Made by a program: the position numbers and the translations under genes. Shown here piece after piece: positions 8,609 to 38,195 of a DNA stretch of 64,000 nucleotides. The stretch lies in UHGV virus genome UHGV-0018639; one strand, written 5' to 3'. The first letter of the stretch is position 1. Each line of letters starts with the position of its first letter. The notes beneath the pieces are model-generated. The model searched no databases and was not told the origin of the DNA. It saw only the letters and a program-made list of their open reading frames with translations. This DNA is from a virus.

Positions 8609-9184
8609 TTACGTGTTTACTATACCAGAATTTTGGAAAGAAGTCAAATTTTTAATGAATCGCTTTGCTTCAACTTCCAAGTCCTCAAAAGTTTGATTGT
8701 TGTCTATTACATAATCATATTTGTAGTTAAGGACATTTGCATCAGCATGATTTGATGCCTTTGAAGCTTCTGCTGAATCGCGCCGTATAAGTAAGGTCGT
8801 ACCATTTGTGGCCTTCTTGAGCTTGTCAATTTCGGCAGGTTCGCGCACATCTACAAAAATGAAGCCTTTTCGCGGATCGATTTGATAGGACAGCAATTCA
8901 TCTTCAAACTCGCGCACGTATTTCATTATATCACGGAAAGGCGCATTGTTGTATGCACTCATTAGATCTTTTAAGTCTGACAGGAATTTACGATCACGTG
9001 GCTCTTTTACACCTTGCCAACCAACTTTCGCGGCAACCTCCTTTACCAAATCTACACTACTGCGCGCCCTATAATATGGACCAAGAATAAAGCTACACAT
9101 TTGTTCAAATGTAGTTTTACCACTACTGGGCGCGCCATTTACTATAACCACATTTACGTGGTTCTCAACTATGTTTGTGTCCAT
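8609..9184 (-). CDS. P-loop nucleotide/polynucleotide kinase
   Basis: Walker A GAPSSGKTT near the N-terminus. 191 aa. It lies between ligase and RNase H, so it could be a PNK-like 5'-kinase or a dNMP kinase. Confidence 0.6.
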   Translation of the reverse strand: MDTNIVENHVNVVIVNGAPSSGKTTFEQMCSFILGPYYRARSSVDLVKEVAAKVGWQGVKEPRDRKFLSDLKDLMSAYNNAPFRDIMKYVREFEDELLSYQIDPRKGFIFVDVREPAEIDKLKKATNGTTLLIRRDSAEASKASNHADANVLNYKYDYVIDNNQTFEDLEVEAKRFIKNLTSFQNSGIVNT

Positions 9185-9662
9185 TTTCTATTTCTCCTTG
9201 AATTTTCTTGCGGGCTTGCACTGCCATTTTATCAACTTCTTCATTATAAGCAATGCCAACGTGCCCACGCACTTTTTCCCATTTGAAGCGTTCATTCTCA
9301 AAATAAGGGATAAGTTCTTGCCAAAGTCTTTTGTTTGCGACAGGCTTTTTCTGTGAATTCAACCAGTTGTATTTCTGCCACGAGCAATACCATTTCTGGT
9401 CATAGCAGTTATGAATGTAGGCGCTGTCTGTAAATACCACACATTCATCAAAGCCAGTGAAGGGAGTTTGTTCGGTAAGATATTTCAGCCCCTCAATAAT
9501 GCTGCGCATTTCCATCTGATTGTTAGTTGCACCAACCTCACCGCCGCTCTGTCGAGTGATTATTCCTTTTCCTTTTTGAATAATCATGAAGGCCCAACCG
9601 CCAACAGCGCCTTCTTTTCCATTTTTACTGCAGGCGCCATCAGCCCATAGCTCATATGTCAT
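9165..9662 (-). CDS. rnhA: ribonuclease H (RNase HI family)
   Basis: ADGAC...TNNQMEM...KVRGHVGIAYNEEVDKMA, the classic RNase HI catalytic motifs. The start is taken at MTYELW and overlaps the upstream gene by 11 nt. Confidence 0.8.
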   Translation of the reverse strand: MTYELWADGACSKNGKEGAVGGWAFMIIQKGKGIITRQSGGEVGATNNQMEMRSIIEGLKYLTEQTPFTGFDECVVFTDSAYIHNCYDQKWYCSWQKYNWLNSQKKPVANKRLWQELIPYFENERFKWEKVRGHVGIAYNEEVDKMAVQARKKIQGEIENGHKHS

Positions 9663-18316: not shown

Positions 18317-18356
18317 TTGACTTTTTCAAAAAATCTTGATATAATATATACATAAG
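18317..18356 (+). promoter_or_regulatory. class-II promoter driving ORF-free region A
   Basis: TTGACT 18317-22, N17, TATAAT 18340-45, ATATACATAAGATAAAG. Confidence 0.65.
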
Positions 18357-19089
18357 ATAAAGAAAAGAAAAAGTCAAAAGGAGGACGATGCTAGTGCCAC
18401 CTACACGTGGTATCCTCTGTTTTCGCTAAGAGCGCTGGCATATATTCAATTAAATAATACTAACTCAGTGAAGACGGAATTCGATGTTCCGGCTGAGAAA
18501 TTCTAGCTAGCACAGCAGAAACGAAACAAGGATACTTGTGGATACTGGACTGGGAGGCCATCGAGAGATGAGCCGAAGTAGAGCGGTTGCTCAAGTGGGA
18601 AGAAGAGCAGGAATTGTGCTGAGTGAATCGCAAGTAAACGCAGCCGTGGAGTGGCGGGCGCAATAGATAGCTTGGTGAATAGCCAAGCCGAATCCAAGTT
18701 AGGTTTTAGTTGGTGACTGTGACAATCCTTGGAAAAGCCAATAAGCTCGTTCCGTTGAGACGACAGGGAATGTGAAATCTGTCTTTGACACTCTACAGTA
18801 TCCGAGTAGCGGAACACAACGGGGACTTTAGATTAAAAAGATGTTGACAGTAATAGAAATTACTACTTTCTGAACATCCCGTGAAAGGTAGAGGTAATCA
18901 ATCCTCTGGCGGATTAGGCGACATTAGACACTTGGGGTTATCCAAGACTAACAAGTCAATGTTGTTGCTGGGGTAAGAAGTGTATGGGCGACGGCCTGTA
19001 TGCTCAGACTTATCTCCCGCGTGGCAGAATATGCTTGAAGGTTTATCGAGGTAGGGCGAAGGCCCAGTAATATTTAGTTGGATTTATAT
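18346..19089 (+). ncRNA. ORF-free transcribed region A (candidate structured RNA) between a class-II promoter and tRNA-Met
   Basis: About 745 nt with no ORF of 60 aa or more on the sense strand. GC is higher than in flanking DNA. It opens with AAAGGAGG plus a 13-codon ORF (MLVPPTRGILCFR) and ends in a tRNA followed by a terminator. Confidence 0.35.
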
Positions 19090-19162
19090 GGCAGGAAGAG
19101 AAGGTTCTCCGTTTGGCCTCATAAGCCAGACTTCGTAGGTTCGATTCCTACTCCTGCAACCA
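19090..19162 (+). tRNA. tRNA-Met (anticodon CAT), non-canonical, initiator-like
   Basis: Anticodon arm TTGGC-CTCATAA-GCCAG, T arm GTAGGTTCGATTCCTAC, TCCTGCA-A-CCA. G1-A72 mismatch, shortened D arm, terminator hairpin directly after. Confidence 0.6.
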
Positions 19163-19163
19163 A

Positions 19164-19192
19164 GGAAGATGCTTCTTCCTCCGTTTTAAAAA
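19164..19192 (+). terminator. intrinsic terminator after tRNA-Met
   Basis: GGAAGATGCTTCTTCC followed by TCCGTTTT. Confidence 0.55.
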
Positions 19193-19330
19193 ATGTCTTG
19201 AACGACAGGAGGTTTTGCTTATGGACATAACAAAATCTAATGAGGACTTTAGTCCAACGAACAAGGCAAAGAGTTGGGCTTCTCTATAAAAAAGCCCTCG
19301 TTTAAAAAAAATGAAAGGAAGTAAGAAAAA

Positions 19331-19759
19331 ATGAAGTATTATAGTGATGTTCTTCATAGTTTATTTGATACTCAGGATGCGCTCGAAAAAGCCGAAGCTG
19401 AGAAGAAAGAAAAAGATGACGAAAAAGTTCGTCAGAAGGAAAATGCTGATAAGCTCAAGGCCGAGGATAAGAAGCGTTTTCTTGAGCTAAGAGAGAGGTA
19501 TTTTAAAGCAAGTGTTGAGTATGAAGCATATTTTGATAAATTGCTGAATAACTACTCATTTAACACCATAATGGGCTGGGTGTCTGAAGCGGCTACTAAA
19601 AAGACCCAGACCCAGACCCAGATTAAGACGATAGATCAGACGGCTGAAAGTATTTTTGATGCTTGCAAGTCAGCTAAAACTGTCAAAACCGCAAAAACGG
19701 CGCGTGAGCCTGAAAATTTGGGAGAAATTCTTATTCGTATTTTTGAGGATATGCAGTAA
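19331..19759 (+). CDS. hypothetical protein (142 aa), Lys/Glu-rich coiled coil
   Basis: ORF track entry with RBS GAAAGGAAG upstream. Confidence 0.5.
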   Translation: MKYYSDVLHSLFDTQDALEKAEAEKKEKDDEKVRQKENADKLKAEDKKRFLELRERYFKASVEYEAYFDKLLNNYSFNTIMGWVSEAATKKTQTQTQIKTIDQTAESIFDACKSAKTVKTAKTAREPENLGEILIRIFEDMQ

Positions 19760-19762
19760 GAA

Positions 19763-20320
19763 TTTTAAATAAATCAGGTTACTTGATCATCGGGTTTCCT
19801 GCGGAGTTAAAGCTAAAACGTTAGCGGTGAATATGGCCATTCCCGCAAGCTCGGCGACTTGTTAGGCAATCGCGCTGATGTAAATTATTGATAAGGGAGC
19901 TTTGGTATAATTTATTCACTGGGGCTTTCCAAAAGTCGGACTCAAGCCTAAACTGAGTTCGCAGTGCTGAGGTCGGTATTCGCTCGGAGAGGATGCGTTA
20001 TTGAGCTAATTAGATTAGCATCAATGTGAGGCAACGGTGGCCAACTCTTAGAGAGCCACGCGATAGAGTTATGTTAAAAGGCAATACTCAGTATCGGTGC
20101 TACTAGGGTTGATAGACAAGTAGTAAAAGTCAGGTGAAGATAATACCGGCTGACATAATTGGGACGTAGCTATAGGCGTAGGCCGTGCCAGAACTAAAGT
20201 GTGCGGCACACGAAACCCAAGTCAGATGCGGGCGATTGAAACGGCGCCCTCAACCCATATAAGGTTTTACAAGAGATTTTCCTTGCGTTAGGCTAAAAAA
20301 TCTCTTTTCTATATAAATTT
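19763..20320 (+). ncRNA. ORF-free region B (candidate structured RNA) preceding tRNA-Gln
   Basis: About 560 nt with no ORF, higher GC and many local hairpins. Ends with tRNA-Gln and an intrinsic terminator. Confidence 0.3.
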
Positions 20321-20395
20321 AGAGGTATAGTGTAATTGGCAACACATCGGCCTTTGACGCCGTATTTATAGGTTCAAGTCCTGTTACCTCTGCCA
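20321..20395 (+). tRNA. tRNA-Gln (anticodon TTG)
   Basis: AGAGGTA..GTGTAATTGGCAACAC..CGGC-CTTTGAC-GCCG..ATAGGTTCAAGTCCTGT..TACCTCT-G-CCA. Confidence 0.8.
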
Positions 20396-20400
20396 ACAGC

Positions 20401-20434
20401 TCCACATTAGAAAAGCCTAATGTGGACTTTTTTA
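20401..20434 (+). terminator. intrinsic terminator after tRNA-Gln
   Basis: TCCACATTAGAAAAGCCTAATGTGGA followed by CTTTTTTAT. Confidence 0.7.
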
Positions 20435-21138: not shown

Positions 21139-21453
21139 ATGGATAAATATACTGGCTATTACGAATGGCGCCCATCAGAGCAAGGGCTTGAGGACTTTTA
21201 TTCTGGCTTTTTTACTCCTGCGGGGATGGGTCTGGTAGAAAACCAGTATTTGATTATCTATGACGCTGATGGCAAAGTTATAGATAAATATTTTTGTAAG
21301 AACAACGAGTTTGAGAAAGTTCATTATATGACACTCCAAAGCGATTACTGCGGCGTTATCAAACCGCGCAATGTGTATCAGGAACTAGCAATTCACGCAC
21401 TGTTAGATAGGCGTGTTCCTGTAAAGGCGCTGGGTGGTGTTTTTGGTTCGGGT
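21139..21453 (+). CDS. phoH: PhoH-like ATPase, exon 1 (N-terminal part up to the Walker A glycines)
   Basis: Ends ...RVPVKALGGVFGSG, the PhoH P-loop start. The in-frame TAA at 21457 lies inside the intron. Confidence 0.65.
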
Positions 21454-21680
21454 AAATAACTTGCCCCTTCTTAGGGCGACCTAAGAATGAAAATCGCGTG
21501 AATTGCTGGAAACCTAAGCCGCGAGGTATGGTAATCAGCAGCCAAGCCGTTTAACAACGGAAGGTTCAACGACTATCCCGACAGGGAGTAGGGAGCAATC
21601 CCGAAGTGCGCGACAACTTTCAAAGTTGATGATATAGTCTAATCCCCTTTTGAAATATCGGGAAACCGAGGGTATAAATG
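21454..21680 (+). ncRNA. group I self-splicing intron (no homing-endonuclease ORF, about 227 nt; boundaries approximate)
   Basis: Core elements P GAATTGCTGGAAACC (21500), Q AATCAGCAGCC (21533), R GTTCAACGACTAT (21564) and S GATGATATAGTCT (21628). P4 shows compensatory pairing TGCTG/CAGCA and P7 pairs GACTAT/ATAGTC. A P1 is possible between the exon end CGGGT and GCCC, and the omega-G is G21680. Confidence 0.7.
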
Positions 21681-22211
21681 AAGGACTTCCTAATGAGCGG
21701 TGCCTGTTTCAGTCTTATCGAAAAAGGCATCTTTGAAAAACTCGTATATATACGCCCTAACATTACACTTGAAGGTGTGCCTGACATCGGCTATCTCAAG
21801 GGTGGAATGGATGAAAAACTTGAATGGACTTTAGCTCCATTATGGGATAAGTTCGGTGGCCGCGAAGCTACTCAAAATCTTGTTGCTTCTGGCAAGATTG
21901 AACTTGTGGCTTTGCCTTTTATTAAAGGTCGTAGCTTTGAGAACAGTATTATCTATGTAAGTGAAGGTCAAAATATAACCCGCAAAGTAGCTGGTAATAT
22001 TATAAGCCGCGCTGGTGAAAACACTGAGATTTGGATAAATGGCGACTATCACAGTCAAACTGACCGTAGAATGTTTGAGATTGATAATGGTATGCGCGCA
22101 ATGGAAGAGACTCTGAAGGGTAATTCATTATATGAAACCCTTTATCTCCCAATCACGGAACGTTCGGCTGTTGCACAGCTTGCTGGAATTGTTTGCAATA
22201 CTGAAAATTGA
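21681..22211 (+). CDS. phoH: PhoH-like ATPase, exon 2
   Basis: KDFLMSGA...RPNITLEGVPDIGYLKGGMDEKLEWTLAPLWD...VALPFIKGRSFENSIIYVSEGQNIT...INGDYHSQTD aligns with the PhoH Walker B and C-terminal blocks. Confidence 0.65.
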   Translation, partial: KDFLMSGACFSLIEKGIFEKLVYIRPNITLEGVPDIGYLKGGMDEKLEWTLAPLWDKFGGREATQNLVASGKIELVALPFIKGRSFENSIIYVSEGQNITRKVAGNIISRAGENTEIWINGDYHSQTDRRMFEIDNGMRAMEETLKGNSLYETLYLPITERSAVAQLAGIVCNTEN

Positions 22212-32212: not shown

Positions 32213-33194
32213 ATGATAGGTGTAGATCTAAATCAATATCGTAATCTACCCGATTACACACAACTTAAAAAGGATGGCTATGAGTTTGCTATTATAAAAT
32301 TGGCAACTGGTGTATCCTTTACTAATCCTTTATTTCAAACCCAGTTTAGTGGTTGTAAGTCAGCCGGCCTCAACATTGGCGTTTATACTCGTGCCGACAA
32401 GCAACCTACAAGCGGTGCACAGGAAGCTGCCTATGCACTTAATATACTGGGTAATCGTCACGTAGATTTCCCCATTTACTATGACGTAGAGGGAGAAACA
32501 CTAAATCTTTCAAAAGACAAACTGACTCAGCTGATTCTTGATTTTGGTGAAGCAATAAAACGTGCAGGATATCGTTGGGGTATTTATACATCCCGCGCAC
32601 ATTTCAAGTGCTTTGACCTTGACAAGCTAAAAGAGGCTGGCGCATCTATATGGTGTGCCGCCTATGACACACAAGCTGGAATGGAGTGCGACATTTGGCA
32701 AAAGTCAGATAAAGGCTCTATTACAGGATATTCTGGACCAGTTGATGTGGATGTTTTATATAATGAAAGCATAATACAGAAGGAGGAAAATAAAATGAGT
32801 TTGAATTTGATAAAATGTTTTCAAACACAGGGCGCGTGGTATAATCAAACCACAAATGGTACTCCTGTTGGGGTATGTTGGCATGATACTGGCGCTGGTA
32901 ATCCAACATTGAAGCGTTATGTTCAGCCATCTACTAATGACCCTGATTATAATTATTTTATAAATCTTATCGGTAAGAACAATAATGGCAATCACTGGAA
33001 TCGTATGGCTGCAAATCAGGCAGGGTTAAATGCTTGGATTGGTCAGCTTGCAGACGGTAGCGTTGCTACTATTCAAGCTGGCCCTTGGGAGAAACGTCCT
33101 TGGGGCGTTGGCTCTGGTAAATATGGTTCACTCAATGGTGATAAGAATGTACCTAATGATAAGTTTTGGATCCAGTTTGAGATTACATCATCGT
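32213..33194 (+). CDS. endolysin exon 1: GH25 muramidase plus the first half of an amidase-like domain
   Basis: GH25 blocks GVDLNQY..DGYEFAIIKLATG..GLNIGVYTRA..FPIYYDVEG..WGIYTS..IWCAAY. The second domain begins VGVCWHDTGAG. There is an internal in-frame AGGAGG-N8-ATG at about 32789. The ORF-track stop at 33206 lies in the intron. Confidence 0.65.
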
Positions 33195-33525
33195 TAGTCT
33201 CCGCGTAAAGCGATTTGCGTGTAAAAATACATATCGAATTGCTGGGAAACTGTAAAGCTATTCTTGCTACAACGTAAGGATGAAATAAGCCTAAGCGTGA
33301 AAGCCGCGAAAGCAGAAAGAAAAGAATAGATGGCGTATGGTCAAATCCTAAGCGCCGTATAATTGGCAATCAGCAGCTAAGCCTTGAATAGAGGAAAGTT
33401 CAACGACTAAGTGCCTTGCAAGCGATTGGCAAGGACAGTGGTATGTGGCTCATTGAGCTAAAGATATAGTCTGTGCTTCGAGAGAAATCCGAAGGAGCGA
33501 AAGCTCAGTGCGGGGTAGCGACCCG
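33195..33525 (+). ncRNA. group I self-splicing intron (no ORF, about 331 nt; boundaries approximate)
   Basis: Core elements P GAATTGCTGGGAAAC (33236), Q AATCAGCAGC (33368), R GTTCAACGACTAA (33398) and S AAGATATAGTCT (33461), nearly identical to the phoH intron. P1 pairs exon ATCGT with GCGAT (33210), and omega-G is G33525. Confidence 0.65.
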
Positions 33526-36372: not shown

Positions 36373-37212
36373 ATGATAAATCCGCAGGAATATGTGAATA
36401 AGGCATATCAGCTTGGTGAAAAGGTTTATGGTAATCGTCTTATATTTGCCGCGCATTATGGTTCTTTCAATTATGGCCTTGCTGATGAAGAAAGCGATTG
36501 TGATGTTATGCTGATTGTAATGCCGTCAATGGATGAGATTATACGATGTGATGTTACTGATACGACGCTGAGATGTGCTCCTGAAGGCGACATCAAAGTA
36601 ATTGATGTGCGCACTTTTGTCAAGCGCCTTTGTGATGCTGACCTTAATTCCCTTCAGTGTCTCTATGCGCCCTATCATAAGTGGGATGAATATTGGGATG
36701 ATATTTTTGCATCTCTGCGCAATGGTGAGTTCCTTTGGGACGTTACAATGATGAATCCGACCGAACTTTTCTACAATATGCGGGGTGTAATAGCCCGCGC
36801 GAGTAAGCGAATGGAAAGAGTCAGTGAGGAAAAGCCTTTCAGTCCATCAGATTCTAAGATGATTTATAACGCAATGAGAATGATTGATCTTGCTGATCTT
36901 TTGTCAGATGAGATTGAGGATGATGGACTTGGCGTTTGTAACGATATCAATTTGTTTTCTTGGGAATATGGTATTCATAGTAAACATGATTTGATGGCAA
37001 TGAAACGTGGTCTTTATTCCTATCAAGCTGCGCATAGTTGCATCGACGGCTGTTTGGAACAGATTGATGAATATCGGGATATATTCATCAATGACAGTAT
37101 GTTAGAGAAAGTTGAGGATGGCCGTATATGTCAGCGCCTTGAGCGAATGATAGAGGCCGCGATTTATAAGCTTTATTTTGAGGGAAAATCTTTTCCGCAA
37201 TTTTGGTCATAA
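36373..37212 (+). CDS. minimal Pol-beta-fold nucleotidyltransferase
   Basis: GSFNYGLADEESDCDVMLIV is a GS-x10-DxD NTase signature. 279 aa with a helical C-terminal domain. Confidence 0.6.
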   Translation: MINPQEYVNKAYQLGEKVYGNRLIFAAHYGSFNYGLADEESDCDVMLIVMPSMDEIIRCDVTDTTLRCAPEGDIKVIDVRTFVKRLCDADLNSLQCLYAPYHKWDEYWDDIFASLRNGEFLWDVTMMNPTELFYNMRGVIARASKRMERVSEEKPFSPSDSKMIYNAMRMIDLADLLSDEIEDDGLGVCNDINLFSWEYGIHSKHDLMAMKRGLYSYQAAHSCIDGCLEQIDEYRDIFINDSMLEKVEDGRICQRLERMIEAAIYKLYFEGKSFPQFWS

Positions 37213-37215
37213 AAA

Positions 37216-37255
37216 TTTGATTTTCTCTCAAATTTTATGTATAATATATATAGAA
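37216..37255 (+). promoter_or_regulatory. class-II promoter driving a tRNA and ORF-free region C
   Basis: TTGATT, N17, TATAAT 37239-44, ATATATAGAAAGTGAG. Confidence 0.7.
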
Positions 37256-37347: not shown

Positions 37348-38195
37348 AATTATTTAAATAAGACAGTAGATGAACTAAAATGAAATTCTACTGTCGGATG
37401 CTTCGCTCCATCCATTACGAACAGAGCGAACCCCGCAAGTCTGAGGGTGAGAGACTGAGTTTTTTGGTAATCTTAAACCAACGTCGGGATAAGTGGCGTT
37501 ACATCTTATCAAAAAATCCGTCTGACTGCAGTAAGGGCGGTTGGTTTGTAGGTTTGCCAACAGGTATAAGTCTGGATATCAATAAATACCTACCAAAGAG
37601 GAGTCGGGTTGGAGTCCTCCGGTGCGGTTGATGACCTAGGCCGCACACATATGTTAGGTTAGTTCAGTAGGAAGAATTACTCCCGTCAAGGAGAGAGTTG
37701 AGTTCGAATCTCAAACCTATCCTTGGTTTGATAAGCCAAGAATTTTATCAGGTGCGGCCCTTTGTCGTCGGTCGAGACTCCGTCCGGAAATGAGCTACGT
37801 CTAAGTAAGAAGCGTAAACTTAGCGCTGATGTGCGTGATGCATTGGTTGCGTGTCCAAAACACGATAGGTTTAGTTGGGTTTTCTACACAAAATTCAACT
37901 GAGTCAGACCGCTCACATGAAGGTCGAGGGTTCCACTCCCCTGACGAAAAGCCAATCGGAAAATCTCTTGGTTTTCTCAATTTTGTCAGTAGTTAGTCGC
38001 ACTGATGAAATTGCTTTTTAGAGTAAGGTGTGTAAGTAGCTAAAGAGATGACGCCTCTTTTCTACTTAAAAACCAAGTTATCCGCCTCTGCTTGGCCGCC
38101 CTAACATTTTAAATGAGGGTGAAATGCGTGGAAGGTAGTCAAAAATGGGGACTGCCGCATAGTTGGTTTTGGAGCGTTGCCAGCTACGGAAAGAT
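37348..38195 (+). ncRNA. ORF-free region C (candidate structured RNA / pseudo-tRNA) between two tRNAs
   Basis: About 850 nt with no ORF of 60 aa or more. It contains at least one degenerate tRNA-like element (about 37646-37725, with T arm TTGAGTTCGAATCTCAA) and many GC-rich hairpins. Confidence 0.3.

Follow-up and report, generated by a model that had tools for sequence, protein, structure and literature searches.

The 64,000-nt stretch of virus genome UHGV-0018639 analysed here (the window) comes from a phage with a genome of about 130 kb, found repeatedly in human-gut metagenomes. Genes identified in it include those for a phosphoesterase, an EcoRI-type methylase, a Clp-like protease, an intron-split PhoH and tail proteins, and ARAGORN places 13 tRNAs at 13.8–20.4 kb and 3 more near 37–38 kb, all on the + strand. 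Within the first tRNA island lie two long regions that a preliminary description of this DNA had proposed as novel structured RNAs: region A (18346–19089), between a promoter and a tRNA-Met that a terminator follows, and region B (19763–20320), between a protein gene and a tRNA-Gln with its own terminator. Both are present at these positions. Novelty did not hold for region A, which is a ROOL RNA; it found support for region B, which is non-coding, has no match in Rfam and shows purifying selection and covariation among its relatives.

The GC content of both regions (0.42–0.48) exceeds that of their immediate flanks (about 0.35–0.37), as had been noted, while other nearby coding DNA reaches 0.40–0.44. 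No close cultured phage was found in the GenBank phage collection. Related contigs were drawn from IMG/VR, ENA and Logan gut assemblies, and loci L039–L071 were gathered by tracing proteins of the ClpP-like cluster to the contigs that encode them; the genomes of this phage clade are mosaic. For region B we aligned 32 distinct full-length sequences, 85.5–99.6% identical to the window, and for ROOL we used a comparison set of 14 other ROOL-bearing IMG/VR loci, fetched with a ROOL motif. Positions of all features are collected in table 1.

Table 1. Features of the tRNA island and of the second RNA unit (positions in the window).
Feature	Position	Strand	Remarks
Promoter of the region A transcript	18317–18345	+	TTGACT, 17-nt spacer, TATAAT, upstream TG; sigma-70-like, 11/12 matches
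Leader hairpin	18380–18418	+	5' strand is the Shine–Dalgarno-like GGAGGA; UGUUUU follows (to 18424)
13-codon mini-ORF (MLVPPTRGILCFR)	18388–18429	+	ATG...TAA
ROOL RNA, full length	18440–19085	+	Rfam RF03087 covariance model
tRNA-Met(CAU)-like	19091–19162 (or from 19085)	+	ARAGORN; starts 5 nt past the ROOL end; encoded CCA
Terminator-like hairpin	19163–19187	+	AGGAAGA/TCTTCCT, then CCGTTTT; read from sequence
142-aa ORF between the two RNAs	19331–19759	+	fast-evolving
Hairpin just past the 142-aa ORF stop	19775–19801	+	5' edge of conserved block
Region B conserved block, ~505 nt	19802–20306	+	candidate structured RNA
5'/3' closing helix	19812–19823 with 20260–20270	+	kept, one-sided changes only
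Hairpin with the strongest covariation of region B	19994–20033	+	6/16 pairs change on both sides
Hairpin	20035–20062	+	two covarying pairs: U-A to C-G, G-C to A-U
Predicted multi-helix junction domain	20103–20256	+	flanks 20103–20164 and 20200–20256 nearly invariant in 32/32
3'-terminal A/U-rich hairpin	20271–20306	+	z = -2.6; stem kept, loop replaced in L040
tRNA-Gln(UUG)	20321–20395	+	ARAGORN; Rfam 63.4 bits; 14 nt after the region B 3' hairpin
Intrinsic terminator	20401–20432	+	10-bp stem, then CTTTTTT; closes the region B/tRNA-Gln unit
Second-unit promoter, -10 TATAAT	37240–37245	+	
X, ORF-poor RNA-like block, ~300 nt	37349–37652	+	ends just before a tRNA-like gene
Marginal tRNA	37653–37722	+	Rfam 29.2 bits; ARAGORN two-base anticodon (tc)
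Y, ORF-poor RNA-like block, ~470 nt	37723–38195	+	ends just before tRNA-Glu
TGNTATAATATATA example sites	13166, 13794, 17875, 18337, 34670, 37237, 38356, 49524		

Region A is a ROOL RNA

A whole-window Rfam scan, the check that the preliminary description had proposed, matched region A to the ROOL model with 268.9 bits (cut-off 99.1, E = 2e-60) over model positions 1–574 of 574. ROOL RNAs form a class of about 580 nt that occurs in phages and prophages near tRNAs (Weinberg et al. 2017, PMC5737381), and the match has the corresponding length and context, being 646 nt long and situated in a tRNA island among phage genes. Region A is a structured RNA, but one of a known family. Equivalent matches are found in the relatives L039 and L050 (266 and 260 bits), and the RNA is approximately 96% identical between the window and four relatives (about 4% divergence). 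The ten full-length matches in the 14 other loci score 300–400 bits, so the ROOL of the window is a divergent, insertion-bearing member. A phage tmRNA (transfer-messenger RNA) stands within the same tRNA island in 3 of these 14 loci (L021, L025 and L030; IMG/VR). The statement that neither region holds an open reading frame (ORF) of 60 aa or more is correct for the + strand of both, while the minus strand of region A has ORFs of 104 aa (18503–18817) and 67 aa over ROOL. These are mechanical; no gene is called over ROOL in the related contigs.

The promoter of region A is one of 27 copies of the promoter-like motif TGNTATAATATATA in the window (3.6 expected), which mostly lie on the + strand upstream of genes and RNA units; this copy is nearly invariant in relatives. 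Downstream, the Shine–Dalgarno-like AAAGGAGG and the 13-codon mini-ORF MLVPPTRGILCFR that had drawn attention earlier are indeed present (together 18377–18429), with the ATG just 3 nt after GGAGG, but they are not conserved. In L039, the most divergent lineage, AAG replaces ATG and GTT replaces an in-frame GTG, and both possible starts are lost. The same segment folds into the leader hairpin, in which GGAGGA pairs with UAUCCUC around a GCCAC/GUGGU stem. At the base of this stem L039 has GGAGAGC/GUGCUCUC in place of GGAGGAC/GUAUCCUC, with two pairs changed on both sides and pairing kept. Because L039 loses the starts yet keeps the pairing, we regard the leader as a conserved hairpin and not as a conserved small ORF. 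The terminator scan flagged its inner part as terminator-like, and the hairpin may serve as a terminator/attenuator or as a 5' stabilizer.

At the 3' end, the tRNA-Met(CAU) is non-canonical, with a short D-loop of 4 nt and an Rfam tRNA score of 28.4 bits, just below the cut-off of 29. The terminator-like hairpin behind it was missed by the terminator scan because its T-run is too short for the scan rule. Between this hairpin and the 142-aa ORF lies a 22-codon ORF (MDITKSNEDFSPTNKAKSWASL, 19221–19289) with AGGAGG 8 nt upstream, and a hairpin overlaps its stop codon.

Region B is non-coding, conserved and covarying

The 142-aa ORF upstream of region B has no family match above threshold. Its counterparts in relatives (133–147 aa) share 48–85% protein identity with it, and divergence is greater at the third codon position than at the first and second. 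The hairpin just past its stop consists of unrelated sequences in four lineages, all of which fold. Conservation then starts sharply at position 19802, and in every lineage checked tRNA-Gln lies directly 3' of region B. In the relative L050 (1886–3000), a different 89-nt tRNA-Gln and a GIY-YIG endonuclease gene stand between region B and the ClpP-like gene.

Gene calls leave region B empty in all of the more than 30 related contigs to which the ClpP cluster led. Each reading frame of region B contains 9–15 stops, with all three stop kinds in five of the six frames and all but TAG in the other. Stop-codon recoding, already discounted in the preliminary description, would need at least two stop kinds to be reassigned in every frame. 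Searched against Rfam on its own and with lax filters, region B still gives no match at E ≤ 10, and ARAGORN finds nothing inside it. No described family that matches region B was found in the literature.

Several classes of known element were considered and rejected, and the earlier statement that neither region matches a tmRNA, RNase P RNA or an intron is borne out by Rfam. As a tmRNA, region B gives no ARAGORN or Rfam signal, and the same tools do detect tmRNAs in other ROOL loci. As a group I or group II intron or RNase P RNA, it has no Rfam match, and the group I model detects two introns elsewhere in the window (21444–21662 and 33145–33494). The first of these splits PhoH into 21139–21459 and 21678–22211; relatives have either an uninterrupted PhoH of 281 aa or one whose intron holds a LAGLIDADG endonuclease gene. 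A degenerate tRNA array, which would have undone the earlier proposal, is not what Rfam and ARAGORN call: no tRNA match at E ≤ 10 falls inside 18440–19085 or 19763–20320, only the flanking tRNAs being found. As an origin with iterons, region B shows neither iterons nor direct repeats.

The core of region B is 93.4–99.0% identical to four relatives (1–6.6% divergence). Over the same comparison, fourfold-degenerate sites diverge by 19–28% in the adjacent ClpP-like gene, 27–51% in PhoH and about 40% in the methylase gene, and the tRNAs are 90–100% identical. Judged by this comparison, region B is under purifying selection at the nucleotide level. Since the 142-aa ORF that separates ROOL from region B has diverged far more than either, a single recent transfer of the whole island does not account for the conservation.

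Region B was found in only one clade of human-gut phages with genomes of about 130 kb. BLAST against 50,697 phage genomes in near and distant modes, up to E = 10, gave chance matches only. Exact 19–24-mers from conserved cores, used as probes, retrieved four contigs of the clade from IMG/VR and five contigs from a metagenome collection, all of the latter with region B at 93–99%; they retrieved nothing from GTDB genomes. Following the ClpP-like protein led to just one 90% cluster and a 34% match on a short contig. With an nhmmer profile of region B, no match came up in a GOLLD locus, the rest of the window, the 14 ROOL loci or three other gut-phage records.

For the 32 sequences RNAalifold predicts 163 pairs, with 98.6% of cells paired. 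Ten of the predicted pairs are changed on both sides, compared with 4.5 ± 1.5 when the 3' partners are shuffled, a count reached in 1 of 500 shuffles. When partners were slid instead, 1–5 pairs were obtained, and column-shuffled alignments gave 2.1 ± 1.4 pairs (maximum 7 in 40) and a consensus energy of -232.7 ± 7.6, against -254.1 observed. Hand-curated local helices yielded 11 such pairs versus 5.3 ± 1.7 (0/500). For calibration, the identical pipeline was run on other alignments from the same genomes, all on the + strand. Region B again had 10 pairs (shuffle mean 4.5, reached in 0/300), and ROOL, the positive control, had 4 (mean 1.8, 3/300). The coding segments of ClpP and orf563 had 2 (mean 1.4, 135/300) and 3 (mean 3.0, 218/300), respectively. 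In this alignment, then, the covariation of region B exceeds three kinds of control. A further measure counted individual cells with changes on both sides; it carries no weight here, since the coding segments scored above their shuffles as well. Alignments of 5–8 sequences were too alike for covariation, and the signal became clear at 32.

The consensus energy favours the + strand (-254, compared with -229.5 on the minus strand), on which the tRNAs and flanking genes also lie. In an 8-sequence alignment 152 G.U cells were counted against 13 A.C cells, a count biased to the + strand by a structure predicted on that strand.

In the most strongly covarying hairpin, AUUGA-G-CUAAU...AUUAG-CA-UCAAU becomes GUUGG-A-UAAG...CUUA-CG-CCAAC in L070, L071 and L040, with the same architecture. 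In a peripheral arm of the junction domain (20181–20209), C-G gives way to U-A at one pair and numerous changes go by way of G.U; four sequences have a 7-nt insertion in its loop, and in two a 10-nt deletion removes a neighbouring side hairpin. Indels throughout region B fall in loops or remove whole side hairpins. The near-invariance of the junction flanks argues for a sequence-specific function. Evidence for structure comes from comparing relatives and not from folding energy, whose z-scores say nothing useful about region B and its sub-domains and are weak for ROOL too (only -2.5). The preliminary description of both regions as full of local helices is, by that measure, not above chance.

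Two proposed RNA–tRNA units and the competing explanations

ROOL membership of region A is directly supported, as is a region B that is non-coding, conserved, covarying and constantly linked to a tRNA. We propose, with a probability of roughly 60%, that the island consists of two + strand units, each pairing a large RNA with a tRNA, from which RNase P releases the large RNA, and that region B acts in trans. The first unit would comprise the promoter, the leader hairpin, ROOL, tRNA-Met 5 nt further on and a terminator. The second would comprise the variable 142-aa ORF and its variable hairpin, region B, tRNA-Gln 14 nt further on and a terminator. Each large RNA would be made as a precursor joined to its own tRNA, and the layout suggests that an RNase P cut at the 5' end of the tRNA would free the 3' end of the large RNA. 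The predicted fold of region B would combine the 5'/3' closing helix and covarying peripheral hairpins with a nearly invariant junction core. The RNA may then act in trans during infection and share the functional niche of ROOL and GOLLD. Co-transcription, release by RNase P and any trans function or self-assembly are what we infer from this arrangement.

Several observations weigh against this proposal. The pairing of the junction core is predicted and lacks covariation support because the core is nearly invariant. The single-sequence folding energy of region B is no better than that of shuffled sequences (z = -0.6 to -1.1). Much of the covariation sits in one hairpin that is block-replaced in three sequences, perhaps in a single event. 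All sequences belong to one clade, with at least 85% identity, which leaves few events, and those are linked by phylogeny. The short intergenic spacers of the island, which contain promoters and terminators, are conserved as much as region B; by itself, then, conservation is not a specific sign. Outside the clade, none of the searches used turned up a relative of region B. Between the tRNA-Met terminator and region B, the promoter scan detected nothing sigma-70-like; 'promoter-driven', as the two regions had been called, applies to region A only. The compensatory changes above controls and the purifying selection expected of a structured RNA are both found in region B, within a single clade and in few helices.

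The sole promoter-like sequence in region B is an internal extended -10-like TGGTATAAT (19903–19911), which fits the phage promoter motif at 12 of 14 positions. It sits in the loop of a candidate hairpin, and its hexamer is TTTAAT or TCTAAT in two lineages, so it is not kept there. Sequence variation supports neither an internal promoter nor the AU-rich helix 19881–19889/19908–19916.

That no promoter of its own was found for region B would also suit a cis-acting role, as a structured 5' leader of tRNA-Gln that controls its processing, storage or timing. Region B is always fused to tRNA-Gln by a spacer of only 14 nt, with a single terminator past the tRNA, and the arrangement resembles the 'inhibited storage' proposed for GOLLD-embedded tRNAs (PMC12990946). 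We nevertheless consider such a leader unlikely. Elsewhere in the first island, tRNAs are packed into tight arrays or lack a comparable leader, and a nearly invariant junction core of 150 nt exceeds the needs of any known tRNA leader. Moreover, ROOL has the same fused layout, yet is abundant as an RNA of its own in at least one Ligilactobacillus salivarius strain (PMC12286853).

Region B might instead be a very divergent GOLLD or ROOL, beyond the reach of the Rfam models. The ROOL of the window is already the lowest-scoring full-length one seen. Region B also resembles the GOLLD of gut phage MT835469.1 in position and in its fusion to a tRNA, and its size is close to that of the GOLLD 3' domain (416 model positions, 491 nt in MT835469.1). 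This identity is improbable, as neither model gives a match at E ≤ 10 when the region is searched by itself under lax filters, a search of the GOLLD locus, the ROOL loci and the rest of the window with the region B profile brought up nothing, and no common conserved motifs were seen except short A-rich loops.

It is more doubtful still that region B is conserved as DNA, whether as an internal promoter or regulatory element, as a replication or packaging site, or as a recently exchanged block. TGGTATAAT, the equal conservation of neighbouring short spacers and the mosaic genomes would fit such a reading. It predicts neither the compensatory changes, nor the loop-confined indels, nor the better consensus energy on the + strand; repeats of the kind found at origins are missing, the -10-like hexamer varies, and recent exchange would need separate events on either side of the highly diverged 142-aa ORF. 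That region A or B codes for protein, through recoding or small ORFs, is very hard to credit: the leader mini-ORF with its Shine–Dalgarno-like sequence and the minus-strand ORFs of region A speak for it, but L039 lost the starts and kept the hairpin, no genes are called in either region in related contigs, the stops of region B are of too many kinds, and ROOL fully explains region A.

A second RNA unit and comparison with known systems

Near 37–38 kb the window holds a second + strand unit, in the order promoter, tRNA-Pro, X, marginal tRNA, Y, tRNA-Glu and terminator. The only Rfam matches in this unit are tRNAs, X and Y having none at E ≤ 1. Y is 86–91% identical in relatives, compared with 76–78% for the flanking 279-aa gene. 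Seven covarying pairs were counted in Y versus 1.8 ± 0.9 in shuffles and four in X versus 1.4 ± 0.7, neither count being reached in 300 shuffles, and the same pipeline found no covarying pairs in the neighbouring orf98. Together, X, the embedded tRNA and Y span about 850 nt, the size of a GOLLD RNA. BLAST finds no counterpart of the marginal tRNA in three relatives. The 279-aa gene (36373–37212), just upstream of the unit, has a weak precomputed match to PF10127 (RlaP) in relatives; we take RlaP to be a nucleotidyltransferase family linked to RNA repair.

Tentatively, the phage clade may have ROOL and up to three further large structured RNAs of undescribed families (region B, X and Y), all fused to tRNAs and released by tRNA-processing enzymes; like ROOL and GOLLD, these RNAs might self-assemble or act on the translation machinery during infection. 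If this is true, the four would form a set of 'tRNA-island ornate RNAs'. Large, intricately folded RNAs are rare in bacteria and phages, and a phage that carries ROOL beside one to three further RNAs of this kind would provide new candidates for structural work. It would also suggest that such RNAs form interchangeable families that can hold similar genomic positions, as a GOLLD lies upstream of a ClpP-like homologue in a distant phage. Present in many human-gut metagenome assemblies, these phages offer a natural system for studying the function of such RNAs.

ROOL is the closest known system. Region A shares with it the full model alignment, the length of about 650 nt and the setting in a phage tRNA island. 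It differs from other ROOLs in its low score and its insertions. On its 5' side it is preceded by the conserved terminator-like leader hairpin. ROOL and GOLLD both adjoin tRNAs in phages and prophages and are possibly co-transcribed with them (PMC5737381, PMC12286853). Cryo-electron microscopy showed that ROOL builds RNA-only nanocages (PMC12286853, Kretsch et al. 2025). Region B is like ROOL in being a large RNA of similar size directly 5' of a tRNA and terminator, with a conserved core and a variable periphery. It differs in that nothing in its sequence or structure is recognized by the ROOL model (RF03087; no match at E ≤ 10). To our knowledge, GOLLD and ROOL are the sole natural RNAs reported as multi-subunit nanocages.

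GOLLD, which was reportedly described by Weinberg et al. in 2009, is the second point of comparison. Like GOLLD, which lies beside or around phage tRNA genes, region B is a large phage RNA next to a tRNA, and the modelled 3' domain of GOLLD is of similar length. The GOLLD model (RF02032) does not match region B at E ≤ 10, although it works on MT835469.1 (172.6 bits). That phage, a 176-kb sequence from human faeces, carries the ClpP-like gene closest to that of the window in the phage collection (32% identical). Its GOLLD RNA (8889–9469 of the locus) is directly followed by tRNA-Arg and lies about 2.6 kb upstream of the ClpP-like homologue, a position similar to that of region B. Region B nevertheless has no profile similarity to this GOLLD and lacks a separate variable 5' domain.

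Bacterial rRNA operons and mitochondrial transcripts are cases in which the ends of neighbouring RNAs are set by RNase P and RNase Z. The layout of the window is of this tRNA-punctuated kind: ROOL, region B, X and Y each end about 5–14 nt before a tRNA or tRNA-like gene, and X and Y also begin right after one. The difference is that, in the window, such processing is suggested by the layout.

Region B can also be set beside OLE, raiA and HEARO, large bacterial RNAs that are chromosomal and widespread. It resembles them in its length, its lack of coding capacity, the intricacy of its predicted fold and its strongly conserved core, but it has no Rfam match to them and is seen in one phage clade only. 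Akin to ROOL and GOLLD in context and architecture and matched by neither model, region B is most aptly seen as founding a new family of the ROOL/GOLLD kind.

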